A DNA stretch of 64,000 nucleotides from Candidatus Woesebacteria bacterium RIFCSPHIGHO2_01_FULL_44_10 (GTDB lineage Bacteria > Patescibacteriota > Microgenomatia > UBA8517), in assembly GCA_001792465.1 (NCBI GenBank), contig MGGO01000031.1:1172-65171 (forward strand), in the 5' to 3' direction. The position numbers and the translations under genes were made by a program. Within the stretch, counting starts at the first letter, position 1, and each line of letters starts with the position of its first letter. The notes beneath the pieces are model-generated. The model was not told the origin of the DNA. It did not search any database and worked only from the letters and a program-made list of their open reading frames with translations. Of this stretch, positions 4,832 through 45,000 are shown one piece after another.

Positions 4832-6319
4832 CTAGCCGAAGTATCCGCGGTTCATCATTTCTGTAATACTTAGGCCTCGGTTGGGTGGTGGTCCATAGTC
4901 GGCAATATATATCTGCGGATCTACATGCGTATCCGAAATCAGATGTAAAATTAGTATAGAGAAAGCATCTGCTAAATCATCATGCTTTTCAATTCCAAAC
5001 CCAACAAGTTGCTCAATCAGTCTTTCTGCCCCTTTTCTTGGAAATAAAATCTTGCCTGTTCTTATCATGTGTGTTGTTAAAGAAAGTCGCGCTCTTTTAT
5101 CGCTTCCTTTTAATTTAACTCCCTCAGCTGGTATCTCTTTTTGTTCCAGTTGCTGAGTGAAAGCTGACTGGTATGCAACCTCTTCAATAAGCAGCTTAGT
5201 TGGAGTTCCCTCTCCTAGTGCTTTTGATAAGTTTTTAGCCTCCTCAATCGCATCAGGGAAAGATAGACGTTTGTTTATAGGATTAGGAAGGATATAAATC
5301 TTTCTTTCTTCAGAATAGTCATAAACGCTGGCAGATACCATGGCTGTATAGTCGGCTGTATCTTTTTCAGATATTGCAAGGTCAACTCCGGTCAATGTGT
5401 ACATAAATTCGTTTCCCGTAGGTGGTCCATCGTAATATTGTATCCACTCAGGATGAACAATCCTGTCTTCGTCAGATATTATTGTCAGTAAGAACTCTCG
5501 CGACCATGAGGATTCACTTGCCACTTTTAACTTTTGTTCTTTTACTGTCTTTTCATCTGGAAATTTTCCCGGCCAAATAATTTTATCGTCTTTAATCAAA
5601 GGATATTCTTTATAAGTTCCACTTAGCTTGTTTTTAATAATTTGATTTTTAAGCCTCATCATCAACGAGTCTTCGTGCAACAAATTGCCAATAATTACAT
5701 ATTTAGAGTTGGGGTTCCCGGCTGGGATAACATCTCCAGTTAACCATTCATAAGATTTGTTTCGTCCCTCTCTGGTTTTTACTGAATTTAGATCTTCCAC
5801 ATCATCGCAAATTATCAAGTCCGGCCTGTTTTGTAAGTGCCGAAGCCCTCTGATGCTCTCACCGCTTGATATCGCCGTTATTCTGGTATTATATTTTGAA
5901 AGGACTAAAGAGTTTGCCCGCCATTCGTCATCATCTTGTCCAAATGGCCCAAAGTCAGACATGAGTGTCGTGTTTGTTTCAAACTCTTTCTTGATGTTAG
6001 ATAGTATCAACCGTGATTGTTGCTGGGTTTGACTGATGAGAATTATGAATTTTTTGTTTAAATTACCAACCATCGCCCAGATGGGGTATGAGAGTGTCAT
6101 TATTGTTGATTTTGCCGAGCCTCTAAATGCAACAATTACTACAAACTTCTCGCTCTCGTTTTGAGTTAAACCAAAAATCTCTTTTTGGAAATCTGCAGTC
6201 TTGAATTCCACATAATGAGGGAAGTAGGTATTGAAAAACCAGAAATGGCTACGTTTTGTAAGGTGTATGCGAAATGACCTGTCCTGGATAAGCTTTTCAT
6301 GAATTTTGTGATCTTCCAT
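4832..6319 (-). CDS. Phage terminase large subunit-like ATPase/nuclease
   Basis: Walker A-like 'AFRGSAKST' and Walker B 'LIICDDVED'. A C-terminal acidic nuclease-like region is present. The size is 495 aa. Confidence 0.55.
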   Translation of the reverse strand: MEDHKIHEKLIQDRSFRIHLTKRSHFWFFNTYFPHYVEFKTADFQKEIFGLTQNESEKFVVIVAFRGSAKSTIMTLSYPIWAMVGNLNKKFIILISQTQQQSRLILSNIKKEFETNTTLMSDFGPFGQDDDEWRANSLVLSKYNTRITAISSGESIRGLRHLQNRPDLIICDDVEDLNSVKTREGRNKSYEWLTGDVIPAGNPNSKYVIIGNLLHEDSLMMRLKNQIIKNKLSGTYKEYPLIKDDKIIWPGKFPDEKTVKEQKLKVASESSWSREFLLTIISDEDRIVHPEWIQYYDGPPTGNEFMYTLTGVDLAISEKDTADYTAMVSASVYDYSEERKIYILPNPINKRLSFPDAIEEAKNLSKALGEGTPTKLLIEEVAYQSAFTQQLEQKEIPAEGVKLKGSDKRARLSLTTHMIRTGKILFPRKGAERLIEQLVGFGIEKHDDLADAFSILILHLISDTHVDPQIYIADYGPPPNRGLSITEMMNRGYFG

Positions 6320-18618: not shown

Positions 18619-20298
18619 ATGAGCGGATATATTTTAGGAATCACCGGATGGTTTGAAAGAAGTCACGACGCATCTGCGTGTATTGTTAAAGACGGCAAGG
18701 TTTTGGTTATGGTTGAAGAGGAGAGATTTATCCGTAAGAAACATGCATACGACAAGACACCGGTTCGTTCGATTTCTTGGTGTTTAAATAAGTTGAGCCT
18801 AACTTTGGATGACATTGAGACTGTTGCGGTAGGTTGGGACTATAAGTATCTTTACCGTCTTGCTGGATTAAATGAGCCCAGATTGAATAATCTCGCAGAT
18901 GTGTTCTTTCCCAAAAAATATTTTTCGTATTCAAGGAAGCTAAAAATCGAAATTGTTCCCCATCATTTGGCACATGCGGCTTCATCGTATTTTCTCTCCG
19001 GATTAGACGAAGCAGCAATTTTAGTAGTAGATGGCCAAGGCGAAAACGAATCAACTACCATAGCTCGAGGTAGATCTGGAAAGATAGATATACTGCGAAC
19101 TTTTAGTATTGAGAATTCTTTAGGATATTTCTATGAAGCAGTGAGTGACTACATAGGACTAGGTCTTGACTCAGCTGGTAAGACCATGGGGCTTGCTTCA
19201 TATGGAGATATTATTTATGAATTTGACGAAATAAAGCTCTCTCCAAATGGGTATAAAGTTAATCTTAAGTTTGATAAAAAAGACAACTCACTTGATCAAC
19301 AGCAGCGTGTTCTTAGTGCATGGAAAAGAGTATTAATAGACACATTTGGTAAGCAAAACCAGGTGGACACAAAGTTTAATCCACTATATGGAGACTTCAC
19401 TAAAAGCGTGAAGATATCTAAGTTGCAAAAAGACACCGCCGCCTCAGCACAGGATGTTTTAGAAAGAACTTTGATGCATCTTTCTGAAATTGCTGTCAAC
19501 GAAACTGGCATAAAAGACTTATGTATGGCGGGTGGTGTGGCGTTAAACTGTTCGTCAAATACCAAAGTCGCCAGATCCGAGCACATAAACAGTCTATTTA
19601 TTCCACCCAACACTTCTGATGCCGGTGTTTCTCTTGGAGCTGCCCTGCTTATATCTGGAAAGGATAATTCGGGTGGGTCTCTGGAGTCTGCATATTTTGG
19701 ACCTTTATACACAAACTCTGAAATTAAATCTGTACTTGATAAAAACAATATCGCATATGAATACCATGAGGATATTGAAGATGTAGTTGCTAAACTACTA
19801 GCAAATGGAAAGATTGTTTCTTGGTTTCAGGACTCATTAGAGATTGGACCAAGGGCGCTTGGCAATCGAAGCATTGTAGCAAATCCAACGCTTGCGACAA
19901 TACACAAAAAGGTTAATGAGGCAAAAAACAGAGAGCAATGGAGGCCTCTAGCCCCCAGTATTCTAGAGGAGTCGATTGGTAAATATTTGGTAAATCCGAT
20001 GAAATCTCCTTTCATGCTTCATACATTTGATGTAAAAAAAGAAGTAAGAAGTAAAATTTCCGCGATTGTGCACGTTGATGGATCAACTAGACCTCAAACA
20101 GTGAGTAAAAAGGCAAACCCCCGATACCATAAAATGATCAGTAAATTTGGTAAATTAACAGGTTATGATCTTGTGCTTAATACATCTTTTAATGGTAGTC
20201 GTGAGCCAATAGTTTGCTCTCCATATGATGCATTAACCTCATTTATTAGTAATTCTACCGATTGCCTTGCTATTGGAAACTTTCTTGTAAGCAAATGA
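18619..20298 (+). CDS. NodU/CmcH-family carbamoyltransferase
   Basis: 559 aa. The N-terminal 'ILGITGWFERSHDASACIV' is a Kae1/YgjD-like carbamoyltransferase N-domain. A C-terminal YrdC-less CmcH-like domain is present. Confidence 0.7.
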   Translation: MSGYILGITGWFERSHDASACIVKDGKVLVMVEEERFIRKKHAYDKTPVRSISWCLNKLSLTLDDIETVAVGWDYKYLYRLAGLNEPRLNNLADVFFPKKYFSYSRKLKIEIVPHHLAHAASSYFLSGLDEAAILVVDGQGENESTTIARGRSGKIDILRTFSIENSLGYFYEAVSDYIGLGLDSAGKTMGLASYGDIIYEFDEIKLSPNGYKVNLKFDKKDNSLDQQQRVLSAWKRVLIDTFGKQNQVDTKFNPLYGDFTKSVKISKLQKDTAASAQDVLERTLMHLSEIAVNETGIKDLCMAGGVALNCSSNTKVARSEHINSLFIPPNTSDAGVSLGAALLISGKDNSGGSLESAYFGPLYTNSEIKSVLDKNNIAYEYHEDIEDVVAKLLANGKIVSWFQDSLEIGPRALGNRSIVANPTLATIHKKVNEAKNREQWRPLAPSILEESIGKYLVNPMKSPFMLHTFDVKKEVRSKISAIVHVDGSTRPQTVSKKANPRYHKMISKFGKLTGYDLVLNTSFNGSREPIVCSPYDALTSFISNSTDCLAIGNFLVSK

Positions 20299-21152
20299 AT
20301 ATCTCTGTAGTAATACCAGTATGTAATGATCTTAGGCTGAAAGCGTGCATAGATTCTATTGACGAAAAGGTCGAAGTTGTTATTTCTTTAAATAAACCAA
20401 CTAAAGAATTAAAAGACTTGATAAAGTCGATTCTGAAAGTTCAAAAAGAGAAAAATAAATATAAAAATATTAAATTTAATATTTGCGAGATCGGTTACCC
20501 CAGTATTGCAGGTGCCTATAACAATGGTATAAAACACGCGAGCTATGAAAATATTTTATTAATGGATTCTGATTGTATATTTGAAAAAGGATGTATCAGA
20601 AAGCTACATCAAAACATAAAAGGCCATCTTCTTTCGAAAGGAAAGGTTGTTTTCTCGAGTAATTCGCTTGTAACAAAAGTGGTGGCCAGAGCACGAGAGT
20701 TTCATACTTCCGATAAAGTCAGCGCATATTCTCCTCCCCTGCTTTTTAAAAAGAAAATAATCAACAAAATTGGTGGATATTATTTTCATCCTTCTTTGTG
20801 CTGGCTTGAAGATAGCGAATTTGATAAACGAGTTCAAAATGCCCAGTTAGAAATAGCATACGATAAATCTGCGAAGGTTATACACCCCTCTTTGAGTCCA
20901 GCACGGGATCTAAAGAGCGCCATTTGGTATGGAGTTGGAAAAAGAATAGGTGTAGAACTGGGAATTCACGATAAACCTACTGGCTTGATAGGCAGTATAA
21001 AGAAATATATTATTATGGCTCCCAAAAGCAAGGGATATTTGTCAGGCTTATATTTATTTACTTGGAAAATGGCTTTGTTTGTGGGTTATTATAGCCAAAA
21101 GTTTTTTAAGATAAGACCGGTGAGTATGATTATGTCTCAAAAAGAGAACTAA
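20295..21152 (+). CDS. Glycosyltransferase family 2
   Basis: 'MNISVVIPVCND' is a GT-A N-terminus and 'LMDSDC' is a DxD-like motif. The start was trimmed to the internal Met. Confidence 0.6.
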   Translation: MNISVVIPVCNDLRLKACIDSIDEKVEVVISLNKPTKELKDLIKSILKVQKEKNKYKNIKFNICEIGYPSIAGAYNNGIKHASYENILLMDSDCIFEKGCIRKLHQNIKGHLLSKGKVVFSSNSLVTKVVARAREFHTSDKVSAYSPPLLFKKKIINKIGGYYFHPSLCWLEDSEFDKRVQNAQLEIAYDKSAKVIHPSLSPARDLKSAIWYGVGKRIGVELGIHDKPTGLIGSIKKYIIMAPKSKGYLSGLYLFTWKMALFVGYYSQKFFKIRPVSMIMSQKEN

Positions 21153-21780
21153 ACCTTTTAATTGCAAATACTTCAGCAAAATCGCATTGCTCATGTAGCA
21201 ATCCTCGGTATTGATTTAAACCTTTTATTGCCAAGTCAATTCTGGAAGTTTCTAATTGCGATTTGTAATACGACATGGCTTTCATCTTAATTCCAATATA
21301 TTTAGTAATATCTTCAACTAGATTGTAAGCTTGAAGAGGCTTGTGCACTTCGTATAAAATCAACCCTTTTGTTTTTTTATTAGAATTTATATTGTATCTC
21401 CAGTAAGCTTGGGAAATTATTTGATAGGAAATTTTATGTTCATAATCAGCATCAAGGTCGTGGTTTATGTAAATAAAATCTGGTTTAATTTTTTTCCAAT
21501 ATTTTATAATTTTTGAAATATTCTGAACTGACACCTTGAATGTTTGATCTTTTAGTCGGAGAAATTGGCAATCAGTTATTTTCATATATGAACAAACTTT
21601 TTTCGCTTCTTCCTCTCTTCGTTTTTCTATCCTGTCGCCAGAAGATAAATATTGAATATAAACGTTGTTATTATTTTCTATCGCTTTAGCAATAGTTCCT
21701 CCACACCCTATAATTTCGTCATCTGGATGGGGTGCTATTACTAAAATTTTGTTTTTGGTACTTTTAGATGAATTTATCAT
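21130..21780 (-). CDS. PIG-L/LmbE-family N-acetylglucosaminyl deacetylase
   Basis: 'ILVIAPHPDDEIIGCGGTIA' signature. Confidence 0.7.
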   Translation of the reverse strand: MINSSKSTKNKILVIAPHPDDEIIGCGGTIAKAIENNNNVYIQYLSSGDRIEKRREEEAKKVCSYMKITDCQFLRLKDQTFKVSVQNISKIIKYWKKIKPDFIYINHDLDADYEHKISYQIISQAYWRYNINSNKKTKGLILYEVHKPLQAYNLVEDITKYIGIKMKAMSYYKSQLETSRIDLAIKGLNQYRGLLHEQCDFAEVFAIKRFSSLFET

Positions 21781-21825
21781 GAGCCTGTAGTATTATATCA
21801 AAGCTAATCGTAAATAACATTATAT

Positions 21826-22890
21826 ATGGATAAAGACAGGGATAAATTAACAAATCATGACCAACAAGCTCGTTCTGAGATAACTCTGATTATGAAATCT
21901 GGGTGGTCCGATATCGATATCGTAGATATTGAAGATCATACAGAACAAGGGTATTTCGGAGGAGTGTATTGTATAAAATCAACGGAGCGATCATACGCAT
22001 TAAAAAAACATCCAAGATCATTTAAAGGAAAATTTGATTTTCACAATCAAGTTTCTAATTTTATCAGCAACACTGGAGATGTTCGTTACTTCCCTTCCAC
22101 TATTCCAACTGAAAGTCGCGAACTGGCTGTTGATGAACCAGAGACTGATTCCTTTTGGGTACTAAATGAATGGGTAGAGGGGAGGGATATGAGATATCGT
22201 AGCAGACAAGAGAACGTAGATCACCATCTTCCGTTAATCTTTCGAAAAGTAGCACAAATGCATTCTCAGCTGGCTTCATTTCCCATAGGTGATGACAGCG
22301 TTGTGGATCGTAGCCTGTCAGAACACTGGGTACCAGAAATGTTAGAAAGATTTGATTTGGTCAGCAAAGGAGATTCGACCAGAAGAATAATTGATTTAAC
22401 CGGAATCGATTCTGCTAGTCTGACCAGATTTATGAGTATGAGTGACAGGTTTATTGAAGATATGTTGCAACATGACAAGCCTAAATATTGGGACCACAAT
22501 TTAACTAGAACTGTTATTCATGGTGATCTTAATCTCTCTCATGTTTTTGAAGCAAGTGGCGACTATGTATTGGTTGATATTGATAGGATGAAATACGGAA
22601 TGAGACTTGATGATCTTGGGAATCTAATCTCGGAGGCTTTTTTGTCTTGTGGGCAAAATACAGTGCTCGAGTCACTGCGTACGGCTGAGCAAGTGTTACC
22701 TTTAACAGATGTTGAAAAAGAAGACCTGACACAATACGTTAAATACGGTAAAATTAGGCAAAATTTTTGGTTGCTAAATGAAATTCTTACAAGAAATGAT
22801 CCTATGACATCTTTCCCTTTACAGCTTGAGCAAGAAGTTGCTAACACAGTTTTACTCGTTGAAAACTTAGAGATAAATGACAGAACGTAA
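21826..22890 (+). CDS. APH/choline-kinase-like phosphotransferase
   Basis: 'VIHGDLNLSHVF' is a Brenner HxDxxxxN-like motif and 'VLVDIDRM' is a DxD motif. Confidence 0.55.
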   Translation: MDKDRDKLTNHDQQARSEITLIMKSGWSDIDIVDIEDHTEQGYFGGVYCIKSTERSYALKKHPRSFKGKFDFHNQVSNFISNTGDVRYFPSTIPTESRELAVDEPETDSFWVLNEWVEGRDMRYRSRQENVDHHLPLIFRKVAQMHSQLASFPIGDDSVVDRSLSEHWVPEMLERFDLVSKGDSTRRIIDLTGIDSASLTRFMSMSDRFIEDMLQHDKPKYWDHNLTRTVIHGDLNLSHVFEASGDYVLVDIDRMKYGMRLDDLGNLISEAFLSCGQNTVLESLRTAEQVLPLTDVEKEDLTQYVKYGKIRQNFWLLNEILTRNDPMTSFPLQLEQEVANTVLLVENLEINDRT

Positions 22891-23599
22891 TAATAAATAT
22901 TTAAAACATTTTGAAGGAGACAGAGCACTAAAGAGATATCAAAATGAAATCCAGTGTGCCCAGATGTTTCCATTAATTACACCTCGTGTGATTTCAAGAG
23001 ATGATAAAAATCTTCGACTTGAATTCGAGTTGTTGCGGGGGGATAATACAGCGTTTACCAAATCGGGCTTGGTAGCCATTGGTAGAACTTTGGCTCAAAC
23101 TCACAAACAGGCAGGAATTGAATCAGGAGAATGGGTGGAGTCGGGACTACTTAGTAGGTACCAGGCAACTAATATTTCATCTCTCAGAGAGAGATATCAA
23201 AGCGCCAAAGGTGAGATTGAAGCGCCAAGATACAGCTTGACTCACGGAGATTACAGACGCAGAAATATATTTCTCACAGAGGGTGACGGGGTCAAGGTCA
23301 TCGACTGGGAATTTGCCGGTACAAATCTAATTTATTGGGATTTAGCAATCTTTATAGGAGATATGAGACATCAAAGATATCACAAGATACATGATTTAGA
23401 TGATTCACATTTTCTAGAAGCATACACTGGAGAGATTCCCTTAACCGATGAAGAAGCAAACTTCTGCCGTGTTTTAGGTGGAGTGGACATCGTACTTGAC
23501 CACATGGAACCAAGACAGGGAGAAAAACCGCCCGAACCGTCAGATTTGTTTGTGAATTTTAACGAAGAAGAAATGAAGTATTTATTACACAGTAACTAA
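22877..23599 (+). CDS. APH-like phosphotransferase (second paralog)
   Basis: 'LTHGDYRRRNIFL' and 'VKVIDWEFAG'. Confidence 0.55.
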   Translation: MTERNNKYLKHFEGDRALKRYQNEIQCAQMFPLITPRVISRDDKNLRLEFELLRGDNTAFTKSGLVAIGRTLAQTHKQAGIESGEWVESGLLSRYQATNISSLRERYQSAKGEIEAPRYSLTHGDYRRRNIFLTEGDGVKVIDWEFAGTNLIYWDLAIFIGDMRHQRYHKIHDLDDSHFLEAYTGEIPLTDEEANFCRVLGGVDIVLDHMEPRQGEKPPEPSDLFVNFNEEEMKYLLHSN

Positions 23600-23601
23600 T
23601 C

Positions 23602-24567
23602 ATGTCAATCGAAAATCAAATACGCACTAACTTGGAAGAAAACGAGGTTTATTTGTCAGAGAATCTTGGCCAACATATTTTGATAGATGAAGAAGCCCTA
23701 GAGTTAATCGGCCGTCAAGTAATTTCTGGTGGGAATGTGCTAGAGATTGGATCAGGGCCAGGAAATCTTACCGCAAAATTAACCGAACGGGCCAATCGAG
23801 TTGTAGGCATTGAGATAGACAGACAATTTGCCCCTGTATTAGAAGATCTTCAGGCAAGTTCACCAAATCTTGAGGTGATATATGGTGATGCATTAAGAGT
23901 TAATTTTCAACAGATAGTAGAATCTGAGAGAGATGAAGAGTGGCAAGTGGTATCTAACTTACCTTTCCATATCTCTGAACCGTTCTTAAAAAAGGTCGCA
24001 GGTCTTCCTGTCGAAAATGTCGTCCTAGTTGTAGGAGATGCTCTTGCAAGATCTATGCAAATTACAGATCCGGATTCTAGTGAGTTTAGTAGAACTTCTT
24101 TTTTGAGTCAAACCTTTTTTGAAACAAGTGTCATTGCAGATATTGAAAAGTCGGCTTTTTATCCTCCCCCTAGAACAAACGCAACAGCTGTTGTTTTGAC
24201 TCCGAGAGAAAGAGACGAGTTTAAATCAAATCCAAGGCTGGCAATCCAACATCGTTTATTTCTGACTGAGCATAAAAGTCCTACTGTGGGTAAAGTGATA
24301 AAGGAAGCCAGAGATAACCAAGTTGGTGGTGCGGGTAAAGATTCACACAGACCAAGCAGAAGAAAGGCAAGGCAAGAATTAAAACAACTTATTTACGAAG
24401 CTAACAATGGTGGTTTAGGGCAAGGGAATCGTCAGGATGGGGGAATTGGACACAGAGATGATAGTTTGGGTCTAGATGAGAGAATTCTAAGCACTCCATT
24501 TTCAAGGCTCGATAATCAAGAAGTTAGAGAACTGGCAAAAGCACTTAGAGATAAGTTTGGGCAGTGA
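23602..24567 (+). CDS. ksgA: rRNA adenine N6,N6-dimethyltransferase (KsgA/RsmA/Erm family) with an R/G/K-rich C-terminal extension
   Basis: 'LGQHILIDE', 'VLEIGSGPGNLT' and 'SNLPFHIS' (NLPY-like). An additional tail of about 60 aa, 'GGAGKDSHRPSRRKARQ..', is present. Confidence 0.7.
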   Translation: MSIENQIRTNLEENEVYLSENLGQHILIDEEALELIGRQVISGGNVLEIGSGPGNLTAKLTERANRVVGIEIDRQFAPVLEDLQASSPNLEVIYGDALRVNFQQIVESERDEEWQVVSNLPFHISEPFLKKVAGLPVENVVLVVGDALARSMQITDPDSSEFSRTSFLSQTFFETSVIADIEKSAFYPPPRTNATAVVLTPRERDEFKSNPRLAIQHRLFLTEHKSPTVGKVIKEARDNQVGGAGKDSHRPSRRKARQELKQLIYEANNGGLGQGNRQDGGIGHRDDSLGLDERILSTPFSRLDNQEVRELAKALRDKFGQ

Positions 24568-24619: not shown

Positions 24620-25027
24620 TCAGATTAAATCAAAAGCTTTCTTCTCGTCTTCGTGTTTCATTACTTCCTTAACTTTTTCGATCGGCATCCAATCATAACC
24701 GATACTTTCTTCATTTAGTTGAATCGATATATCTATGCGTTCAACTTTTAATGCTAAGAAATGGGCTTCAGTTAACCCATGTTTGCCCTCAAACTCAATT
24801 TTATAATTTAAGTTTTTGGTTTCTTTGAATTCGCTTGTCCCGAATTCTTCACCAGCCTCTCTTTTAGCTGCTTCCTCAAGGTTCTCATCTTTTTCAACGT
24901 CACCAAAAGTAATAGTCCATTCGTCCTCGTATTCGTCAAAAGGTTTATTGTGACGAAGTAAGAACCTTTTGTTTCCTTCTGGATCTATAGTCCATACTAT
25001 TACGGCTACTTTTTGATGTTTGCTCAT
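24620..25027 (-). CDS. NUDIX hydrolase (copy A of a duplicated module)
   Basis: Nudix box 'GDVEKDENLEEAAKREAGEEFG'. It is 135 aa and about 88% identical to the ORF at 42689..43096. Confidence 0.65.
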   Translation of the reverse strand: MSKHQKVAVIVWTIDPEGNKRFLLRHNKPFDEYEDEWTITFGDVEKDENLEEAAKREAGEEFGTSEFKETKNLNYKIEFEGKHGLTEAHFLALKVERIDISIQLNEESIGYDWMPIEKVKEVMKHEDEKKAFDLI

Positions 25028-25533
25028 ACTTTCAAGATTCTATTATAAAACTCATACTTTGCTCTTTGATAGTCCTTGTAATTTTTTCCATCAAAAGACA
25101 ATTTCAAATCTTCATACTCTTTTAATAATTTGTTGTTAGATCTTAGAATTTCATAGACTTTGATTTGCCTATCTGGAGGTTCTGTCAAATAAACTTCTAT
25201 CTCGTAACCGTCCTTATTAAATTTCCATTCAACGAAGGACTTTTTGACATATCTCCCTTGTTTATTAACTTCTCCAAAAAGCTTTTCAAAAGTTGGCAAA
25301 TACTTATCAAAGTCTTCCATGTTGGCAAGGGCATAAATATCAATGTCTTTTTGCCCTGATATTTCTAGAGCCACAGACCCCATGAACAGCACTTTAAGAT
25401 TAGAAAATGATTTTTTTATCTGTTTAACAATTGCTTCTCCTAATTTTTTGCCTTTTGAGTTAAATGGATGTATCGAGACTTTTCTATTAGGATCAATTTT
25501 TGATAAATAATCATTTTCTTCTTTGGTAAGCAT
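25024..25533 (-). CDS. GrpB-like nucleotidyltransferase-fold protein (copy A)
   Basis: 'LFMGSVALEISGQKDIDIYAL'. The annotated 234-aa ORF was trimmed to the internal Met (MLTKEEN) by comparison with its paralog at 43093..43590. Confidence 0.5.
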   Translation of the reverse strand: MLTKEENDYLSKIDPNRKVSIHPFNSKGKKLGEAIVKQIKKSFSNLKVLFMGSVALEISGQKDIDIYALANMEDFDKYLPTFEKLFGEVNKQGRYVKKSFVEWKFNKDGYEIEVYLTEPPDRQIKVYEILRSNNKLLKEYEDLKLSFDGKNYKDYQRAKYEFYNRILKV

Positions 25534-25569
25534 GTTTTGATTATATCGCACAACTGGTAAAATTGGATC

Positions 25570-25986
25570 ATGGCTAGAACTGGTACTCGCGCGGTTGCAA
25601 TAATTATCAAAGATAATAAAGTTGCCTTGATTCATCGTAAAAAAGAAGGAAGAGACTACTGGGTATTCCCTGGTGGTGGCGTAGAAAAAGGAGAAACCCC
25701 TGAAAAGGCAGTTATCAGAGAAGTGCAAGAGGAGTTGAGTTTGACAGGTAAGGTGGAAAGACTACTTTTTTCGGTAGAAAGTTACCCCAATGGCAATAAA
25801 GATCCATATTTTTTGTGCAGCGTTGGAAGCGAAGAAATTGAGTTGGGTGGACCAGAAAAGCAGCGACACTCAAAAGAGAATTGGTACGCCCCGCAGTGGG
25901 TTGAATTTGAAAAGGTTGGTAGCTTAAATTTATTACCCGAGACGGCTAAAGAACAATTTTTAGAAAAAGTTAGATCTGAGTTATAA
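25570..25986 (+). CDS. NUDIX hydrolase (MutT-like)
   Basis: 'GGGVEKGETPEKAVIREVQEELS' is a Nudix box. Confidence 0.65.
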   Translation: MARTGTRAVAIIIKDNKVALIHRKKEGRDYWVFPGGGVEKGETPEKAVIREVQEELSLTGKVERLLFSVESYPNGNKDPYFLCSVGSEEIELGGPEKQRHSKENWYAPQWVEFEKVGSLNLLPETAKEQFLEKVRSEL

Positions 25987-26044
25987 TCACATTTAGGTTG
26001 ATTTTGTAAAGTTATATCTCAAATTATAACTATACCAAACCACA

Positions 26045-26300
26045 TCAGGTATAGCAGCTGAGACAAATCCCTTTTTATACTGTCTCATTTGTCTCGTTTG
26101 GCCTCGTTTGTGATACACTTGAAGGAAGCAGCTATGGGATCGAAAGGTTCCAGACCGACATGCTCAGCCAAACAGGGCACCCCAGCGACCGAGATGCCTC
26201 GAGAAGCCCAACCTTTCCTTCTAAACCGCTAGTTTTTCTTCCAAACATTCGGACGGTACGCTCGTAATTCGGATATTAGCCTTGAAATAAGTCTCTGGTT
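26045..26300. repeat. Intergenic repeat family, copy 1, containing a GAGACAAAT/ATTTGTCTC hairpin and a degenerate tRNA-Gln-3'-like segment
   Basis: Shares 'GAGACA..CCCTTTTTATA.TGTCTCA..TGTCTC', 'GTGATACACTTG' and 'GGTTCCAGACC..GCTCAGCC' with the copies at 40362-40615 and 44842-45000. Its distal part, 'GGGCACCCCAGCGACCGAGATGCCT', matches 3266-3292 just downstream of tRNA-Gln. Confidence 0.5.
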
Positions 26301-26374: not shown

Positions 26375-26632
26375 TTGAAACCTGTTATTGCCAAAGAAGT
26401 CAAAGAGGAAATATTGGCTAAAGTTAAGGCCGGTGAACCAGCCGCTTCAGTTGCCCAGAAATTCGGAATCTCGGTCAAAACGATATATGGCTGGTTAAGA
26501 TGGAATACCATTAAAGGAGTAAGTTGGCTAGATTATGCCAAGTTAAAGAGAGAAAATCAGCAACTAAAAGAGATTATTGGGGTATTGTCCCTTGAGGTTG
26601 CAAAGTCAAAAAAAAAGACAGGTAGGGCGTGA
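26375..26632 (+). CDS. IS3 transposase OrfA (HTH)
   Basis: 'VAQKFGISVKTIYGWLR' is the HTH. The leucine-zipper-like 'LKRENQQLKEIIGVL' follows. Confidence 0.7.
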   Translation: MKPVIAKEVKEEILAKVKAGEPAASVAQKFGISVKTIYGWLRWNTIKGVSWLDYAKLKRENQQLKEIIGVLSLEVAKSKKKTGRA

Positions 26633-27449
26633 GCTTGAAGCTAAACTGCCTGGAATCTCCAAACCCCTTATCTCCCGAACTCTTGGGATTGGAGAAAGAA
26701 ATCTTTACAACCAAAATACTAGACAAAAAGAGGCTGATCTGGCCCTAAAAGACCAGATACTCAAGGTTTTGGAACTAAACCCAAGTTATGGTCACAGAAG
26801 AGTCGCTTTAGCCTTGGGGATTGGCAAGAAAAGGACAAGAAGAGTTATGAGGCTGTTTGGTATCAAGCCTTACAAAAGAAAAGCTAGATGGACCAAAAAG
26901 AAGGATTATGGCAATCCACCCTCAGGAATTCCGAACCTTATCAAAGGTTCCTGCCCAGTTAAACCCAATGTTTATTTTGCCGGAGATTTTACAAGGCTAA
27001 TTTGGAATCAAAAGATTATCCATCTGGCCACTTTTATTGATTTATTTACCCGGGAAATTGTGGGCTGGTCAGTTTCCATTAGGCACACATCAGAATTTGT
27101 AATTGAAGCATTTTTAGATGCAGTGAGGAATGCGGGTTTACCTCTAATTGTCCATACCGATCAGGGAAGCGAATACAACTCAAAAGAATACACAAAGTTT
27201 ATGGAAAGCCTGGGAGTTAAGGTAAGTATGTCTGCTAAAGCCAGCCCTTGGGAAAATGGCTACCAAGAATCTTTCTATGACAACTTTAAAACTGATCTAG
27301 GAGCAGAATTTGAAAGGTTTGAGACCATCGGAGAGTTTGTCGAGGCTCTCCATTCAACAATTAACTATTACAACAACCGAAGGATTCACACCAAACTTAA
27401 AACATCTCCTCTCAAATTCAAGCTAGAATTTCTATCCCGTAATATGTAG
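26577..27449 (+). CDS. IS3 transposase OrfB (DDE/rve integrase core). It is expressed as an OrfAB fusion via a -1 frameshift.
   Basis: 'HTDQGSEYNS' marks the DDE region. The C-terminal 'YNNRRIHTKL' matches the conserved IS3 end. Confidence 0.7.
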   Translation: MGYCPLRLQSQKKRQVGRELEAKLPGISKPLISRTLGIGERNLYNQNTRQKEADLALKDQILKVLELNPSYGHRRVALALGIGKKRTRRVMRLFGIKPYKRKARWTKKKDYGNPPSGIPNLIKGSCPVKPNVYFAGDFTRLIWNQKIIHLATFIDLFTREIVGWSVSIRHTSEFVIEAFLDAVRNAGLPLIVHTDQGSEYNSKEYTKFMESLGVKVSMSAKASPWENGYQESFYDNFKTDLGAEFERFETIGEFVEALHSTINYYNNRRIHTKLKTSPLKFKLEFLSRNM

Positions 27450-27473: not shown

Positions 27474-27914
27474 TTGACACACGCGAGTTATCGGGAAAGA
27501 TATAAAGAGTTTTTGAAAATTGACTTTCCTCATATTCCGTATCCAAAAGATAAAAATAGCTTTAAGAAATTGGTTGCATTAGGTACAGAATTACGCTTGC
27601 TACATTTGCTTGAATCTCCGAAAGTAAACCAATTTATAACAACTTATCCTGTTGCTGGATCCAATGTAGTTGAAAAACCAAACTACAAAGATGGCAAAGT
27701 ATTTATTAATGAAAGCCAATATTTCGGAAGTGTTCCAGAAGTTGCATGGAACTTCTGGATTGGCGGTTACCAGCCAGCTCAAAAATGGCTTAAAGACAGA
27801 AAAGACAGAACTCTTACCAATGAAGACATTGAACATTATCAGAAGATGATTGTGGCGTTGGTGGAGACAGAAAGAATTATGAAAGAGATAGACAAAATTC
27901 CAAATGGTTTATAA
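27474..27914 (+). pseudogene. C-terminal fragment of a Type IIG/Type ISP/BREX-PglX-like DNA methyltransferase-restriction protein, truncated by the IS3 insertion
   Basis: 'YFGSVPEVAWNFWIGGYQPAQKWLKDRKDRTLTNEDIEHYQKMIVALVETERIMKEID' is the conserved C-terminal module of MmeI/PglX-like enzymes. The ORF begins inside the IS right end. Confidence 0.5.
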
Positions 27915-27962: not shown

Positions 27963-28970
27963 TTAGTTTCTCTCGGTATATTTATGGTTGTCGCTGAACC
28001 TTTTACAATCTCGACTTGCCTCATCTTTTTTAACCCCTACTTGCATCAGAGGATGAACTAACATCTTTTCTGCGAATTTCCCAAGCTTGACCCCCTGCGT
28101 TTTCGACACTGACTTTGCAAAGCTTATTTTCCCTTGTATTTTGCAGTAGTCATTGGAGGGAATGTATCCTTTCAATGACGCTGTTTCTAAAATTAAATTT
28201 CGTATCTGCTGGATGTGCCCCCTGCCAATTGAAAGCTTTCTGTTAACTGGTATACCTGTGACTTTTTGACTATAGTTTGAAGTTATCACTTTCACCTTTC
28301 GTTTTCTGACTGCATAGCCGTGCTTGACTAGTATTTTGATGATAGGTTCTATTGAGTCGGTAATACTCTTTTTACTGCCTGAAACGGTGATGTCATCAAT
28401 AAAAATGGTAATGTCTAGACCCGCGCTGTCGGCTACGGCTTTTATCTCTCCAAATACGGGTGCGAGTGCAAAGTTGCAAAGCAAAGGACTTGTTGGTGCA
28501 CCCTGGGGCAGTCTGTGTTGAAATGTAGTTAACTTGGTGAGTAGGTTTGCAGTCTTGTACCCGCAGCCAAAATGGTCAATCCACACTTGGTTTATCTGAT
28601 GATAATTCGTGCTGGGAAAACAGTTTTTTATATCGATGACCCCTATACATTCCTTTCCTATATGAATTTTCGCATTTTCGACAATTGACCTACCAGATAT
28701 TCCTCCCGTCATACCATCAGGCAGTCGGCGAATATTTCGATTGAGAATATTTTTAAGTATCCGTTTTTGGAGCGTCTTCAATGGGTGTTGGGGGTTATCT
28801 ATATGCCGCCACTTGTCTGTACCTTTTTTGTGGATATCAAAAGGTTGATAGTAACTACCAGCAGAGGTTGCGATTTTTTGCAACCTATCTCTTTTCGTGC
28901 CCAACAAGTATTCAAGGTATGAAAGCGAAACCAGTGGACGCAATTCTGGGGATTGTTTTTTTGTGCTCAC
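27963..28970 (-). CDS. Retron-type reverse transcriptase
   Basis: 'DIKNCFPS', 'LPQGAPTSPLLCNFAL', 'FIDDITVSG' (an F/YxDD variant) and 'KVTGIPV' (the retron VTG motif). It is collinear with RT-Ec86 over domains 2-7. The size is 335 aa. Confidence 0.7.
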   Translation of the reverse strand: MSTKKQSPELRPLVSLSYLEYLLGTKRDRLQKIATSAGSYYQPFDIHKKGTDKWRHIDNPQHPLKTLQKRILKNILNRNIRRLPDGMTGGISGRSIVENAKIHIGKECIGVIDIKNCFPSTNYHQINQVWIDHFGCGYKTANLLTKLTTFQHRLPQGAPTSPLLCNFALAPVFGEIKAVADSAGLDITIFIDDITVSGSKKSITDSIEPIIKILVKHGYAVRKRKVKVITSNYSQKVTGIPVNRKLSIGRGHIQQIRNLILETASLKGYIPSNDYCKIQGKISFAKSVSKTQGVKLGKFAEKMLVHPLMQVGVKKDEASRDCKRFSDNHKYTERN

Positions 28971-40361: not shown

Positions 40362-40615
40362 AATATTACTATATCAAAATGTATCAAGACTGAAATTTGA
40401 GACACCCTTTTTTATACTGTCTCATTTGTCTCATTTAGCCTTGATGTGAGACAATTACACCACCGAGTTATAAGGATAGAAAGGGTCCAGACCGGCCTGC
40501 TCAGCCGATTCGACTCGCTACGCTCGCTCACGGCTTACAGCCCAAAACCAAGAATTGTCCTGTTATACACTTATACACCCCAGGGGTGGTCTAGGTTGGC
40601 ACAGGTGGGATTTTG
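40362..40615. repeat. Intergenic repeat family, copy 2, adjacent to the IS200-like TnpA remnant
   Basis: 'TATCAAAATGTATCAAGACTGAAATTTGAGACACCC...TGTCTCATTTGTCTC...GGTCCAGACCGGCCTGCTCAGCC'. Confidence 0.5.
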
Positions 40616-40619: not shown

Positions 40620-41290
40620 TTACTCTAATATCAAGCCTTTAATCTTTCCTAGTTTTCTCTGATAATCCGCTTGGTTGTATACAAATTGTTCATATTTTCC
40701 CCTAGAACCTACCATTTTAGTTATAAATGATGAATTTATTAGATCGTTATTATCTTCTTTTTCGGCTAAATAATAAGGAAACGATGTCCACGGGTATTTA
40801 TCTAAATCCACTATATTAATAAGAAATGAAGTTACCGGATTTAAATGTATATACCTTGACAGGTGCAGTAAATAATTATCTTTTTCTATTCTTTTTGCTT
40901 TAAAAGGTCCTTGAAAGACGCTTCCGAATCTTTTATTTCTTAAATTATAGTATTTTGCAAAACTGTTTTGTAAATTAGAGATAAACTGTACAACTCCATA
41001 ATCTTTGATTTGTTTAAGAAGAATGTGATAATGATTAGGCATAAAGGCAAATGAATAAATTTCTACAATTGGGGTTGATTTTCGAAAATTATCTTCATAT
41101 GTCTTTTTGAGATCTTTTTGAAGTGTTAAGTATTTAGAAAACTTTAATTTTTATGGAAATCTATAAAAGTCGATAAGGGAAAGAGCTCTCTTTAGTATTT
41201 TATTGCCTTTATATATTGATATTGCTCCAGTTGAACGATTAAACAAATGGTAATATTCATTATTTGCAAAGACTACTTTTCTTTTGGGCA
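40620..41290 (-). pseudogene. Decayed IS200/IS605-family (Y1/HuH) TnpA or RAYT-like transposase
   Basis: The ORF at 40620..41042 begins at the HuH motif 'MPNHYHILL' and carries the Tyr region 'LSRYIHLNPV'. The missing N-terminal segment ('YYHLFNRSTGAISIYKG') is found upstream in the same orientation but is separated by a stop. Confidence 0.55.
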
Positions 41291-41457: not shown

Positions 41458-42090
41458 GTGTTCATGTTCAGATTATGCCCAATAATTTGGTACAATACCA
41501 AAGAGTTTATTTATATGAGTAACTCAGATGTTTATTACAAAAAGACAATTGAATATCCTTTTAATGGTCAGAAGTTTTCGTTTGATGTCGCAAATACATT
41601 ATTCTCAACTTTTGAGATGGACCATGGCACTGACATTTTAATTCGTTCTATTGTTACAAAAAGTCCAAAAACTATTCTTGATTTGGGATGTGGTTATGGA
41701 CCTCTGGGAGTTATTCTTGCAAAAACCAATCCAAAAGCAGAAGTTACTATGCTTGACTCAAACCTTCTTGCTGTGCGTTATTCCAAATATAACTTGCTGA
41801 AAAATAATGTTACTAACGCAACCGTTGTGGGGAGTGTTGGTATTGAGGCAGTAAAAGATAAAACATTTGATTTAATTGTTTCAAATATCCCGGCTAAAAT
41901 TGGCGATGAAGCGATTACTCAGGAGTTCATTTTGGCACCATATGAGCTTCTTGACCCAGGAGGAGAATTGTGGGTTGTGGTAGTCAGTGCGCTAAACAGA
42001 TTAATACCAAAAATAGGAGGCGAACATAATATTAAAATTAGAAATGTACGGAAACGCCGTGGGCACACTGTTTATCAGATAACAAAATAA
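41458..42090 (+). CDS. Class I SAM-dependent methyltransferase (RsmC/small-domain type)
   Basis: 'ILDLGCGYGPLG' and 'VSNIPAK'. Confidence 0.55.
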   Translation: MFMFRLCPIIWYNTKEFIYMSNSDVYYKKTIEYPFNGQKFSFDVANTLFSTFEMDHGTDILIRSIVTKSPKTILDLGCGYGPLGVILAKTNPKAEVTMLDSNLLAVRYSKYNLLKNNVTNATVVGSVGIEAVKDKTFDLIVSNIPAKIGDEAITQEFILAPYELLDPGGELWVVVVSALNRLIPKIGGEHNIKIRNVRKRRGHTVYQITK

Positions 42091-42094: not shown

Positions 42095-42697
42095 ATGACT
42101 GAAGAAAAAGAATTATTAACAATTTTATCTGAAGACGAGTACAAACGAGTTTTGGCCCGTTTGCGAAAGGAGTTTGGTGAGCCTAAAACTCAAAAACGTC
42201 TATCGCTCCAATCTGATGATTATAGTCAAACAGATATTGATACCAGAATCCGGATTACAAATGGCAATGCTGAGTTGATGCAAAAGGTTGGTGATTGGAA
42301 GAATATTACCAAAGGAAAGTCCCGCACAGAAATTTCTATCCCTCTACCAAGTGACTCCAATGTAATTGCGGGTTTATACAGAATAATTCGTAATCTAATG
42401 AAAGGGCCGAAGATTGAAAATATTGTTATGCAGTTTGAAAGTTTTATCTGGGAAACTAAGAATATCGAAATTAAGCTGACTCATCAGTTTGGCAAAAGTG
42501 ATGCTTACAACTGTGAATTTGAGGTGCTAGATAGCTCGTACAAACCTAAAGATCTTATGAAAAAATATAATGTCCCTATAAATTCACCCACACAAACTGA
42601 GGATTTTTGGAGAAAGTGGAATGAAAAGGTAAATTTAAACGCTGACCAACTAGCTGATGAGGAGTTATTGGAGATTATTAAAAAATATCTAGATTAA
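42095..42697 (+). CDS. Hypothetical protein with possible weak CYTH-like features
   Basis: 'QSDDYSQTDIDTRIRITNG...LMQK' resembles the CYTH 'D.YFDT..LRiR..g..LT.K' pattern. Confidence 0.25.
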   Translation: MTEEKELLTILSEDEYKRVLARLRKEFGEPKTQKRLSLQSDDYSQTDIDTRIRITNGNAELMQKVGDWKNITKGKSRTEISIPLPSDSNVIAGLYRIIRNLMKGPKIENIVMQFESFIWETKNIEIKLTHQFGKSDAYNCEFEVLDSSYKPKDLMKKYNVPINSPTQTEDFWRKWNEKVNLNADQLADEELLEIIKKYLD

Positions 42698-43096
42698 ATC
42701 AAAAGCTTTCTTCTCGTCTTCATGTTTCATAATCCCTTTTACTTTTTCAATTAACTTCCAGTCACATCCAATACTTTCTTCATTTAAAGTAATGGTGACA
42801 TCCAAATTTTCCACTTTTAGTGCTATAAAATGAGCTTCGGTTGGCCCGTGTTTGCCCTCAAACTCAATTTTATGATTTAAGTTTTTGGTTTCTTTGAATT
42901 CGCTTATCCCTAATTCTTCACTGGCCTCTCTTTTAGCTGCTTCCTCAAGGTTCTCACCATCTTCAACATCTCCAAAGGTGATAGTCCACTCATTCTCGTA
43001 TCCATCAAAAGGTTTGTTGTGCCGAAGCAGAAATCTTTTATTTCCTTCTGGGTCAATTGTCCAAACAATTACAGCTACTTTTTGATGTTTGCTCAT
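42689..43096 (-). CDS. NUDIX hydrolase (copy B)
   Basis: Near-identical to the ORF at 24620..25027. Confidence 0.65.
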   Translation of the reverse strand: MSKHQKVAVIVWTIDPEGNKRFLLRHNKPFDGYENEWTITFGDVEDGENLEEAAKREASEELGISEFKETKNLNHKIEFEGKHGPTEAHFIALKVENLDVTITLNEESIGCDWKLIEKVKGIMKHEDEKKAFDLI

Positions 43097-43590
43097 ACTT
43101 TCAAGATTCTACTATAAAATTCATACTTCGCTTTTTGATAATCTTTATAACTTTTTCCATCAAAAGATAGCTTCAAGTCTTCGTATTCTTCTAATAATTT
43201 TTGGTTGGATCTCAGAATTTCATAAACTTTAATCTGCCTTTCTGGTGATTCAGTCAAATAAACTTCTATCTCGTAACCATCTTTCTGAAATTTCCACTCA
43301 ACAAAGGTTTTGTGTGTATGCTTTGGTTTTCCAAATAGGTTTTCTAAAGCTGGCAAGTATTCACCGAATTTATTAGATTCTGATAACGCATAAATATCAA
43401 TATCATTCTGTCCTGCAATTCCAAGTGCTGTTGCTCCCATAAATGATACCTCAACATCAGGCAACTTCTCTTTGATTCTTTTAACTATCAAATCTCCAGC
43501 CTCTTTTGCTTTTGGATCGAAAGGCAAGACAGCAATTTTCTTTTTCGGATCAATTTTAGCTAAATAATTTTGTTCATCTCGCGTAAGCAT
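43093..43590 (-). CDS. GrpB-like nucleotidyltransferase-fold protein (copy B)
   Basis: 'SFMGATALGIAGQNDIDIYAL'. The C-terminal 90 aa are near-identical to copy A. Confidence 0.5.
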   Translation of the reverse strand: MLTRDEQNYLAKIDPKKKIAVLPFDPKAKEAGDLIVKRIKEKLPDVEVSFMGATALGIAGQNDIDIYALSESNKFGEYLPALENLFGKPKHTHKTFVEWKFQKDGYEIEVYLTESPERQIKVYEILRSNQKLLEEYEDLKLSFDGKSYKDYQKAKYEFYSRILKV

Positions 43591-44569
43591 GTTTTATTAT
43601 ACCCGTGTTGAGACTATAATTCATTGTATGAAAGTAATCATCGGCTCCAACAACAAAGATAAAATAAAGATCGCTAAAGATGCTTTAGGTGAACTTCATC
43701 TGGATGTTGAAGTTGAAGGGAAAAAAGCAGATTCTGGGATTGCAGATCAACCACTGGACAAAGAAACCACTCAAGCAGGTGCAATAAACCGTGCTAGAAA
43801 TACAAAGATGCAAAATCCAGAGGCTGATTTTTCGCTTGGATTGGAAGGCGGACTCCATGATTACGGCGAGGGTTATCATCTCGTAACTTTTGCTTGTTTA
43901 GTTGACAAAACCGGTAACAAATTTGTCGGTGAAGGCGAGGAAATCCACTTGCCGATAGAAGTTTCTGAAAAAGTAAAAAACGGAGAATGGTTTGGAAAAG
44001 TTATTCGAGAGTACGCAAAGAAAAACAAAATTGACAACAATTTAATAACCAGATTGTCTCCTTTTGCCCAAGCAATTCAAAACGCATATGCTGAATATCT
44101 CAAAAGTTATGGAGACTTGGGACATAGGGATAAAGCTTCAGGAGTTATTACGAATAGTGATGGTAAGCTTTTGATAGTTCAATTAACTACCTACGGGGAA
44201 GGCCAATGGAATTTTCCTGGCGGGGGGATTGAAGACAACGAATCCGAAGACCAAACTATTTTGAGGGAGCTTAAAGAAGAGTTGGGAACAGATAAGTTTG
44301 AGATTGTCAGAAAAAGTAGGTACATTGAAAAATACGAATGGCCGCCTTTTGTAATTGCTAAACGGCTAAAAGCTGAAAAAAGAACCTGGAGAGGTCAAAG
44401 AGTAAGATATTTTTTAATTAAGTTTCTCGGCAACGACAAAGATTTAAAACCTGATTCTGGAGAAATCGAAAAAATAAAATGGATTAAGAAGGAAGAACTA
44501 AAAGGCCATTTCATTTTTCCTAAACAATTGGAATTAGCAGAAAAGGTGATTGAAGAGTTTCTTATTTAA
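43589..44569 (+). CDS. YjjX/ITPase-like non-canonical NTP pyrophosphatase fused to a C-terminal NUDIX domain
   Basis: The N-terminal 'VIIGSNNKDKI..' through 'EADFSLGLEGG' is collinear with YjjX. The C-terminal 'GGGIEDNESEDQTILRELKEELG' is a Nudix box. Confidence 0.5.
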   Translation: MFYYTRVETIIHCMKVIIGSNNKDKIKIAKDALGELHLDVEVEGKKADSGIADQPLDKETTQAGAINRARNTKMQNPEADFSLGLEGGLHDYGEGYHLVTFACLVDKTGNKFVGEGEEIHLPIEVSEKVKNGEWFGKVIREYAKKNKIDNNLITRLSPFAQAIQNAYAEYLKSYGDLGHRDKASGVITNSDGKLLIVQLTTYGEGQWNFPGGGIEDNESEDQTILRELKEELGTDKFEIVRKSRYIEKYEWPPFVIAKRLKAEKRTWRGQRVRYFLIKFLGNDKDLKPDSGEIEKIKWIKKEELKGHFIFPKQLELAEKVIEEFLI

Positions 44570-44825
44570 AGCCAATTACTTGATATCCGTGTTTTTCAAT
44601 TTCTTCTTTACTCCAAAAAGACAAGTCCTTGGTTTTAACAATGTAAGTAACCTTTTTATCAATGGTTCTACCCGTGTAATCTTTTCTTTCTGGATCCCAT
44701 TCGCGGAGGACCAGAACATCTCCTTTATTGCACCCAAAGTCAGCCAACCTAATTTCAAAAGTTTTATCGCCCCTAAGAATTGCCTCAAAATACTTTGGCC
44801 AGACTTTCTTTTCTATTTTTGCCAT
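44562..44825 (-). CDS. ASCH/DUF3850-like small protein
   Basis: 'WPKYFEAILRGDKTFEIR' and 'GDVLVLREW'. Confidence 0.45.
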   Translation of the reverse strand: MAKIEKKVWPKYFEAILRGDKTFEIRLADFGCNKGDVLVLREWDPERKDYTGRTIDKKVTYIVKTKDLSFWSKEEIEKHGYQVIGFK

Positions 44826-44841: not shown

Positions 44842-45000
44842 AAACAAAACTGTATCAAAACATATCAAGATTGAAGTTTGAGACAACCCCTTTTTATAGT
44901 GTCTTAAATGTCTCACTTCGGCTACACTCAGTGCAGGCATTTAGCCTTAAAAGTGATACACTTGGAGTTAGAGCATATGGGACTATCTGGTACTAGACCC
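44842..45000. repeat. Intergenic repeat family, copy 3
   Basis: 'TGTATCAAAACATATCAAGATTGAAGTTTGAGACAACCCC...GTGATACACTTGGAG...CTAGACCCTGAAGCTCAGC'. Confidence 0.45.

Follow-up and report, generated by a model that had tools for sequence, protein, structure and literature searches.

A duplicated GrpB–NUDIX gene pair in a Woesebacteria genome and its linked partners as a lead to GrpB function

The contig MGGO01000031.1 of Candidatus Woesebacteria bacterium RIFCSPHIGHO2_01_FULL_44_10 (assembly GCA_001792465.1) carries, within the 64,000 nucleotides (nt) analyzed here (contig positions 1,172 to 65,171, referred to as the window), two direct copies, A and B, of a gene pair coding for a GrpB-family nucleotidyltransferase (NTase) and a small NUDIX hydrolase. 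Together with their neighbors, these genes suggest a metabolic nucleotidyl-transfer/pyrophosphohydrolysis pair serving chromosomal "make and break" nucleotide handling in a salvage-dependent organism, a reading to which we give about an even chance. The pair looks like neither a toxin/antitoxin nor a defense system, nor does it look mobile. As a duplication the case is an ordinary one, showing that what seems a "duplicated module" may have arisen long ago as a gene-conversion mosaic between paralogs and need be neither recent nor mobile.

The families GrpB, NUDIX, YjjX and CYTH are already known, and what the case adds is a lead to GrpB function from an unusually informative set of linked partners. 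GrpB/UPF0157 proteins are widespread in bacteria and have solved structures, yet no reaction has been reported for them in the literature that we searched. The partner set narrows the GrpB hypothesis to a transfer that consumes a nucleoside triphosphate (NTP) and releases pyrophosphate (PPi), with a small phospho- or hydroxy-metabolite as acceptor.

Layout of the Two Modules

A sequence-only reading of the window had described two direct minus-strand GrpB–NUDIX copies, each facing a divergent NUDIX gene, and had named a GrpB-like NTase, NUDIX hydrolases and a YjjX–NUDIX fusion. The open reading frames (ORFs) and Pfam confirm this arrangement. The domain calls also hold, with Pfam matches in every case and a matching fold for GrpB. 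The genes and tracts of the two modules are as follows.

20262..23599: GT2, PIG-L deacetylase (minus strand) and two APH-fold kinases beside copy A; families fused to GrpB in the wider subfamily
23602..24567, plus: rRNA adenine dimethylase of the RsmA/KsgA kind, convergent with copy A; elsewhere, members of this family are fused to GrpB or lie next to it
24620..25027, minus: small NUDIX hydrolase of copy A, 135 amino acids (aa), intact Nudix box, identical to A2630_00600
24622..25238: repeat tract A, comprising NUDIX and the 3' third of GrpB, 84% nt identity to 42691-43307
25024..25533, minus: GrpB-family NTase of copy A ("A-type"), 169 aa, ATG at 25533
25570..25986, plus: divergent MutT-like NUDIX beside copy A, 138 aa (Pfam, NCBIfam)
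41458..42090, plus: MTS-type (RsmC-like) methyltransferase, running in the same direction as the CYTH gene; in related loci it is again found near GrpB
42095..42697, plus: CYTH/triphosphate-tunnel fold protein, 200 aa, A2630_00710, convergent with NUDIX B (9-nt overlap)
42689..43096, minus: small NUDIX hydrolase of copy B, 135 aa, 85% identical to that of copy A
42691..43307: repeat tract B, recombination/conversion tract, breakpoint near 43307 at GrpB codon ~95-99
43093..43590, minus: GrpB-family NTase of copy B, 165 aa, a chimera whose first 94 aa are of B-type and whose last 71 aa are of A-type
43589..44569, plus: divergent fusion of YjjX (ITP/XTPase, PF01931) and NUDIX (RppH/Ap4A-hydrolase-like), 326-aa ORF, probable start 43628
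44562..44825, minus: ASCH/DUF3850 protein adjoining copy B; in locus L008, GrpB itself carries a fused ASCH domain

The start-to-start offset between the copies is 18,069 bp. In both of them the end of GrpB and the beginning of NUDIX share 4 nt (ATGA), an arrangement usually read as translational coupling. The spacer between GrpB and the divergent NUDIX gene is about 36-37 nt in both copies, taking 43628 as the start in copy B, which is also the start called for YjjX–NUDIX in public assemblies. The 169-aa product of copy A GrpB is identical to NCBI A2630_00605, and the TTG at 25728 given as its start in the ORF list is thus an over-extension. The four genes flanking the two GrpB genes are the only ORFs with a Nudix box in the 64 kb (regular-expression search). 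Promoter and terminator scans around both copies gave nothing exceeding shuffled expectation.

The GrpB Proteins Form a Remote Subfamily

Pfam GrpB (PF04229, cutoff 25.5 bits) matches copy A with 33.4 bits and copy B with 41.6 bits. The closest solved structures of the window proteins are GrpB domains, which are the clear top fold matches and stand above signaling NTases; the AlphaFold2 model of copy B has a predicted local distance difference test score of 96.7. Across 70 homologs the residues G52, G60, Q61, D63, D65 and E109 are invariant or nearly so; for G52, D63, D65 and E109, conservation is complete or reaches 90% or more, and the secondary structure of the model puts these four on strands 1, 2 and 4. 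Judged by these residues, GrpB has the intact G[S/A]...DxD...E pattern of the DNA polymerase beta (pol-beta) NTases, as expected of an active nucleotidyltransferase.

A profile of 20 homologs retrieved no PDB chain at E≤1, which places the window GrpBs in a remote subfamily at the sequence level. Their identity to the solved GrpB/UPF0157 proteins (PF04229; EF_0920 of E. faecalis, PDB 2NRK; the C-terminal domain of mycobacterial CoaE, PDB 6N39) is only 15-18%. Unlike these, the subfamily of the window is centered on Patescibacteria and has partners of its own, namely NUDIX, pyrophosphatase (PPase)-like, HAD, CYTH and ITPase proteins.

The NUDIX Hydrolases and Other Neighbors

NUDIX PF00293 (cutoff 21.1 bits) matches all four NUDIX genes with 51.9-65.4 bits, and the Nudix box GX5EX7REUXEEXGU is intact in each. 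For the small NUDIX the nearest solved relatives are NUDT2-type diadenosine tetraphosphate (Ap4A) hydrolase, NudI, NUDX1 and MTH1. In the YjjX–NUDIX ORF, NTPase_I-T PF01931 scores 101.5 bits (residues 19-150) and NUDIX 63.4 bits (residues 179-304); the relatives in the PDB are VC0702/YjjX for the YjjX half and lupin Ap4A hydrolase and RppH for the NUDIX half.

The ORF at 42095-42697 has no Pfam family at E≤0.01, and the Pfam CYTH model is unmatched. It has the eight-stranded tunnel of CYTH proteins (triphosphate tunnel metalloenzymes, TTM) together with their conserved acidic and basic residues; the tunnel residues ExE, R, RxR, K, E, ExK and ExE are invariant or near-invariant.

The rRNA adenine dimethylase (RrnaAD) gene flanking copy A scores nearer to KsgA than to Erm. 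Its product has a long charged C-terminal tail. Further to the left, in the region 20262-24567, the PIG-L deacetylase is BshB-like and the kinases have the APH/CotS fold.

Genomic Context and Fusions in Other Genomes

A set of 49 genome and 80 metagenome loci of the GrpB subfamily gave 104 non-redundant GrpB domains. All titled genome records of this set are Patescibacteria or unclassified metagenome-assembled genomes (MAGs). The linkage of GrpB with NUDIX recurs outside the window, which supports the pairing proposed in the sequence-only reading. Four other Woesebacteria loci (L001, L055, L058 and L071) have the GrpB–small NUDIX operon, with a 4-nt overlap in L001, L058 and L071, as well as in L050, and an 8-nt overlap in L055. 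NUDIX is the top neighbor of GrpB at position +1 (13/91; RrnaAD is next with 5) and also at position -1 (9/88), where YjjX (3) and Ham1 (2) are found as well. Fusion proteins of GrpB and NUDIX were found in L011 and among the multidomain proteins described below.

The linkage is strongest among close relatives. In the close clade (53% or more identity to the proteins of the window), NUDIX lies within three genes of GrpB or is fused to it in 21/35 loci, and among more distant loci this holds for 7/62. Counting only fused or adjacent NUDIX genes, the close clade has 12/32 such loci, and 16 of the 95 loci overall have one, which leaves 79 without. In the close clade the genes for GrpB, small NUDIX, YjjX–NUDIX or the unrelated Ham1, CYTH, MTS, PPase-like and RrnaAD proteins recur in varied orders and orientations. 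This recurrence in shuffled orders points to selection on proximity rather than to inherited order alone. Beyond the close clade the neighborhoods vary strongly.

The set has 24 fused extensions of GrpB, among them PPase-like (7), HAD-IA (6), methyltransferase (4, of which 2 are RrnaAD), a second canonical GrpB (2), DUF4202 (2), NUDIX (1, L011) and ASCH (1, L008). According to NCBIfam the fused HAD domains are generic HAD-IA, nearest to YjjG-type nucleotidases and sugar phosphatases and not specifically to PpaX, which does not single out a role in PPi removal.

An exhaustive GrpB profile search gave 761 representative clusters, and fusions were counted in the 29 multidomain proteins among the best 150 of these. 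They contain APH-fold kinases (8), PIG-L (3), polysaccharide deacetylases (2), glycosyltransferases (2-3), NUDIX (2) and HAD (2), and one protein of 1155 aa joins HAD, GrpB, APH, a P-loop kinase and FAD_binding_4. In the window, copy A stands directly beside members of the same kinds of families, GT2, PIG-L, two APH-fold kinases and the RsmA-like methyltransferase. Unusual GrpB architectures in other Patescibacteria include a tandem of a canonical GrpB (179 bits) and a subfamily GrpB (L035), an RrnaAD–GrpB fusion (L101) and GrpB–DUF4202 fusions (L026 and L037).

Copy B is an Old Mosaic

The boundaries of the nucleotide repeat were checked by blastn, which aligns 24622-25238 with 42691-43307 at 84% identity over 619 nt; beyond this tract there is only weak similarity, which reaches as far as 25545/43601, at the GrpB start codons. 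The sequence-only reading had put the small NUDIX proteins at 88% identity, and the measured value is somewhat lower, 85% (115/135). It had also called the NTase C-termini near-identical. The GrpB proteins are 64% identical overall, and the claim is borne out roughly for the C-terminal 71 aa (88%); the N-terminal 94 aa are only about 47% identical.

Comparison of the codons showed that identity steps up sharply at GrpB codon ~99, being about 0.6 before it and about 0.85 after it. Codons 1-98 have 61% nt identity and a non-synonymous divergence (dN) of 0.37, with synonymous sites so saturated that dN/dS is not computable. From codon 99 to the end the nt identity is 84.5%, dN is 0.066, the proportion of differing synonymous sites (pS) is 0.58 and the synonymous divergence (dS) is about 1.1, giving a dN/dS of 0.06. 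The NUDIX genes resemble this second part (83% nt identity, dN 0.08, pS 0.58, dS about 1.1, dN/dS 0.07). Both copies are thus kept by strong purifying selection, with a dN/dS of 0.06-0.07 in the tract.

The GrpB lineages were assigned by a nearest-neighbor test against 99 homologs. The N-terminal 94 residues of copy B are up to 76% identical to B-type homologs and 49-58% identical to the A-type group, which contains copy A. Its C-terminal 71 residues are on average 83% identical to A-types, 88% identical to copy A and 62-71% identical to the closest B-types. By these affinities, the GrpB of copy B is a chimera of a B-type N-part and an A-type C-part, and the 3' third of GrpB with the whole NUDIX gene would have become A-type through old recombination or gene conversion. 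The two lineages also occur within single genomes: L001 and L005 belong to one MAG, and the complete genome CP055307 (L004) has two GrpB genes. Since several genomes hold both lineages, the A-type/B-type paralogy is old. A-type loci of other genomes have the YjjX–NUDIX/CYTH context that copy B has in the window.

The tract event is itself old, as ~58% of the synonymous sites differ. The chimera and the dS of about 1.1 together identify the repeat as an old recombination/gene-conversion tract and not a recent duplication; a recent segmental duplication is ruled out by this dS and by the origin of the GrpB N-parts in different paralog lineages.

The duplication is well supported by independent assemblies from ENA, JGI and Logan. 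The exact GrpB of copy B was found on 21 contigs and that of copy A on 23, always in the context of the window. With more than 20 independent contigs per copy in identical context, an assembly artifact or a strain chimera was rejected as the source of the duplication. A further 21 contigs hold the RsmA-like gene that flanks copy A. All of these that are long enough show the A-type pair, and several stop inside NUDIX A, as short-read assemblies do at repeats.

The sequence-only reading had suggested that the direct repeats could mediate deletion or duplication of the DNA between them. We now consider this a weak proposition, because the repeat is a poor recombination substrate: the copies are 84% identical and share no exact match longer than 38 nt. 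A long stretch of near-identical DNA, as expected of recombinogenic direct repeats, is not found here. No hybrid or deletion junction was seen among the 21 + 23 + 21 contigs (about 65), although these are short-read assemblies from which rare variants would escape. What stands of the suggestion is that past recombination shaped the chimera of copy B.

One related contig, L071, also shows a break. Over GrpB and the first ~25 NUDIX codons, its positions 3536-4917, aligned with 24620-25995 of the window, match copy A at 98-100% identity; past that point the identity falls abruptly to 58-78%. Either a recent allelic recombination has its breakpoint here, or the assembly has switched at the conserved GrpB/NUDIX junction. 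In the first case the locus would be recombination-prone among populations, in the second prone to assembly switching.

Possible Functions of the GrpB–NUDIX Pair

In the reading that we favor, GrpB would consume an NTP, move the nucleoside monophosphate onto a small metabolite and release PPi. The acceptor would most likely be a phosphorylated sugar-like compound or a nucleotide, and the product would then be nucleoside-diphosphate-linked (NDP-X), which is the defining substrate class of NUDIX enzymes. The co-translated NUDIX might cleave NDP-X or aberrant NTPs and in this way set the level or the fidelity of the pool. PPi, triphosphate (PPPi) and non-canonical NTPs would be cleared by the neighbors, i.e., the PPase-like domain (fused in sister genomes), CYTH/TTM, the YjjX or Ham1 ITPase and the MutT-like NUDIX.

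Use of an NTP and release of PPi by GrpB would explain the fused PPase-like domain and the CYTH neighbor, and a phosphate acceptor that is the product of a kinase, giving NDP-X, would explain the fusions to APH and CoaE. Across the loci GrpB has a conserved association with enzymes that break phosphoanhydride or phosphoester bonds in nucleotides.

Several points weigh against this reading. Some of the conserved synteny may have been inherited among related small genomes rather than selected for proximity, and the enrichment of adjacent NUDIX genes over the local background is modest (odds ratio 2.3, p = 0.03 in the close clade; odds ratio 1.8, p = 0.08 overall). Pol-beta-fold NTases usually attack with a hydroxyl, so that the NDP-X product is an assumption, and the small NUDIX resembles Ap4A/NTP hydrolases more than NDP-sugar hydrolases. 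The partner sets carry two themes, nucleotide house-cleaning and sugar/glycan metabolism, which are not separable here. The searched literature held no functional link between GrpB and NUDIX and no demonstrated enzymatic reaction for the GrpB family, its one functional report assigning a role in folding to the UPF0157 domain of CoaE from M. tuberculosis (PMC2765170).

The genes might instead form a pure house-cleaning island, which we regard as unlikely, if the most serious of the alternatives. GrpB would then act on aberrant (deaminated, oxidized or modified) NTPs, for example with water or another nucleotide as acceptor, and without any NDP-X, and NUDIX, ITPase, PPase-like, HAD-IA nucleotidase and CYTH proteins would carry out parallel or consecutive steps in detoxifying the salvaged pool. 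The partners in the closest clade fit this well, being nearly all classic hydrolases (MutT-like and Ap4A/RppH-like NUDIX, YjjX/Ham1, the PPase-like fusion and HAD-IA near YjjG), and salvage-dependent cells need sanitation of their pools (PMC12887539). It leaves unexplained the fusions to APH kinases, to PIG-L or polysaccharide deacetylases and to glycosyltransferases. Moreover, no NTase of the pol-beta fold is known to us to act as an NTP pyrophosphatase.

Somewhat less likely still is that there is no functional coupling at all, the adjacency resulting from abundant local NUDIX genes and inherited order, and the duplicated pair being a relic of segmental duplication and conversion. NUDIX genes make up 10.7% of the other, non-adjacent genes in the close-clade loci, so chance adjacency should be common, and both the 79 loci without an adjacent NUDIX and the highly variable neighborhoods outside the close clade are in line with this explanation. 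It fits poorly with the conserved 4-nt ATGA overlap, the independent GrpB–NUDIX fusion proteins, the proximity that persists despite shuffled order and orientation, the substitution of YjjX by the non-homologous Ham1, and a conversion tract that covers the GrpB 3' end and NUDIX as a single unit.

Modification of a xenobiotic or antibiotic is improbable. Here, GrpB would be an ANT/Lnu-like NTase that inactivates an aminoglycoside- or lincosamide-like compound, standing beside APH-type kinases, GNAT acetyltransferases and an Erm/KsgA-like rRNA methyltransferase. Such families are indeed among the fusion and neighbor partners of GrpB (APH in 8/29, GNAT, RrnaAD), copy A adjoins two APH-fold kinases and the RrnaAD gene, and ANT and LinB have the same fold as GrpB. 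NCBIfam, which we take to include the resistance-gene models of NCBI, gave no match for either GrpB, and neither an ANT/Lnu model nor a closest fold of that kind was found. The RrnaAD protein scores nearer to KsgA than to Erm, and the NUDIX, ITPase, PPase-like and CYTH partners would have no role.

The sequence-only reading had also offered a toxin/antitoxin-like or signaling pair, possibly in defense, in which GrpB makes a toxic or signaling nucleotide or nucleotidylates a target and NUDIX removes the product. The pair is small, overlapping and duplicated, and copy A has an IS3 element, a reverse transcriptase and a Type ISP fragment as neighbors. We nevertheless consider this idea very improbable: PADLOC found nothing for GrpB and only the generic model PDC-S07 for NUDIX, the pairing is not obligate (79/95 loci lack a NUDIX partner), GrpB is fused to metabolic enzymes, its top fold matches are GrpB structures ahead of signaling NTases, and the genes evolve under purifying selection (dN/dS 0.06) in a chromosomal context that is stable in more than 40 contigs.

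A bacterial writer/eraser system for RNA 5' ends (cap-like) is a similarly long shot. The CYTH/TTM protein would trim the 5' triphosphate, GrpB would attach a nucleotidyl group, methylation of the product would fall to the methyltransferases that adjoin GrpB or are fused to it, and the NUDT2/RppH-like NUDIX would remove the cap; the co-converted GrpB C-terminal domain and NUDIX might then be a co-adapted interacting unit. The RNA triphosphatases of Cet1 and mimivirus have the CYTH/TTM fold, and the fold neighbors of GrpB include terminal uridylyltransferases (TUTases) and poly(A) polymerases.

Other Features of the Window

An intergenic element of ~135 nt occurs in three copies in the window (26027-26170, 40364-40509 and 44846-45000), two of them just to the right of the two GrpB modules. 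Its core is TTTTTATAnTGTCTCAnnTGTCTC followed by ...GGATCGAAAGGTTCCAGACCGACCTGCTCAGCC. The element was also found in L001, L003, L024, L058, L065, L068 and L072, and in some related loci it lies directly upstream of GrpB. RNAalifold gave no stable consensus structure for it, and Rfam searches of the window and of the element returned only the tRNA. The element may be a promoter/operator or a leader.

A mobile/defense islet lies directly to the right of copy A (26375-~30700), and the same arrangement was seen in the independent assemblies L140 and L141. It contains the following features.

26375-27449: IS3-family element
27474-27914: C-terminal fragment of a Type ISP restriction enzyme
27963-28970, minus: reverse transcriptase, with a helix-turn-helix (HTH) gene; a PDDEXK nuclease lies in the same islet

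A 140-aa ORF (40620-41042, minus strand) weakly matches, below the threshold, the C-terminal part of a Y1 transposase of the IS200-like kind and is possibly a remnant.

Near the right end, a diversity-generating retroelement (DGR) was found at 60938-63802. Its template repeat of 124 nt (60938-61061) corresponds to the reverse complement of 62487-62610, at the 3' end of an ORF on the minus strand (62477-63802), and all 18 mismatches between template and variable repeat fall on adenines of the template (18/18). A reverse transcriptase with a YADD motif is encoded at 61399-62583 (plus strand). The 130-aa ORF at 61092-61484 (minus strand) has the position and size range of a DGR accessory protein (Avd) and is a candidate for it.

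Comparison with Known Systems

House-cleaning hydrolases (MutT/NUDIX, YjjX, Ham1/RdgB and YjjG) belong to the same families that cluster around GrpB in Woesebacteria. The house-cleaning sets known to us lack a GrpB nucleotidyltransferase or a CYTH protein and are usually dispersed.

NadM-Nudix, which joins an NMN adenylyltransferase to an ADP-ribose pyrophosphatase, is alike in coupling a PPi-releasing NTase that makes an NDP-X to a NUDIX hydrolase, and the GrpB–NUDIX fusion of L011 parallels it. The divergent NUDIX gives weak NCBIfam matches to NadM-Nudix models, all far below the cutoff. Nothing in the window ties the system to NAD, and NadM is a Rossmann-type (HIGH-motif) nucleotidyltransferase that is not known to have the pol-beta fold.

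The salvage pairs of an anomeric sugar kinase and a sugar-1-phosphate nucleotidylyltransferase (e.g., AmgK/MurU with the HAD phosphatase MupP; LicA/LicC) may be likened to the GrpB partner set, in which an APH-fold kinase, a HAD phosphatase, an NTase, PPi removal and glycan enzymes occur as fusion partners or neighbors. MurU and LicC are again Rossmann-like and not known to have the pol-beta fold. By analogy, the coupling of GrpB with NUDIX resembles both NadM-Nudix and the kinase/NTase salvage pairs in its probable logic, with a different NTase fold.

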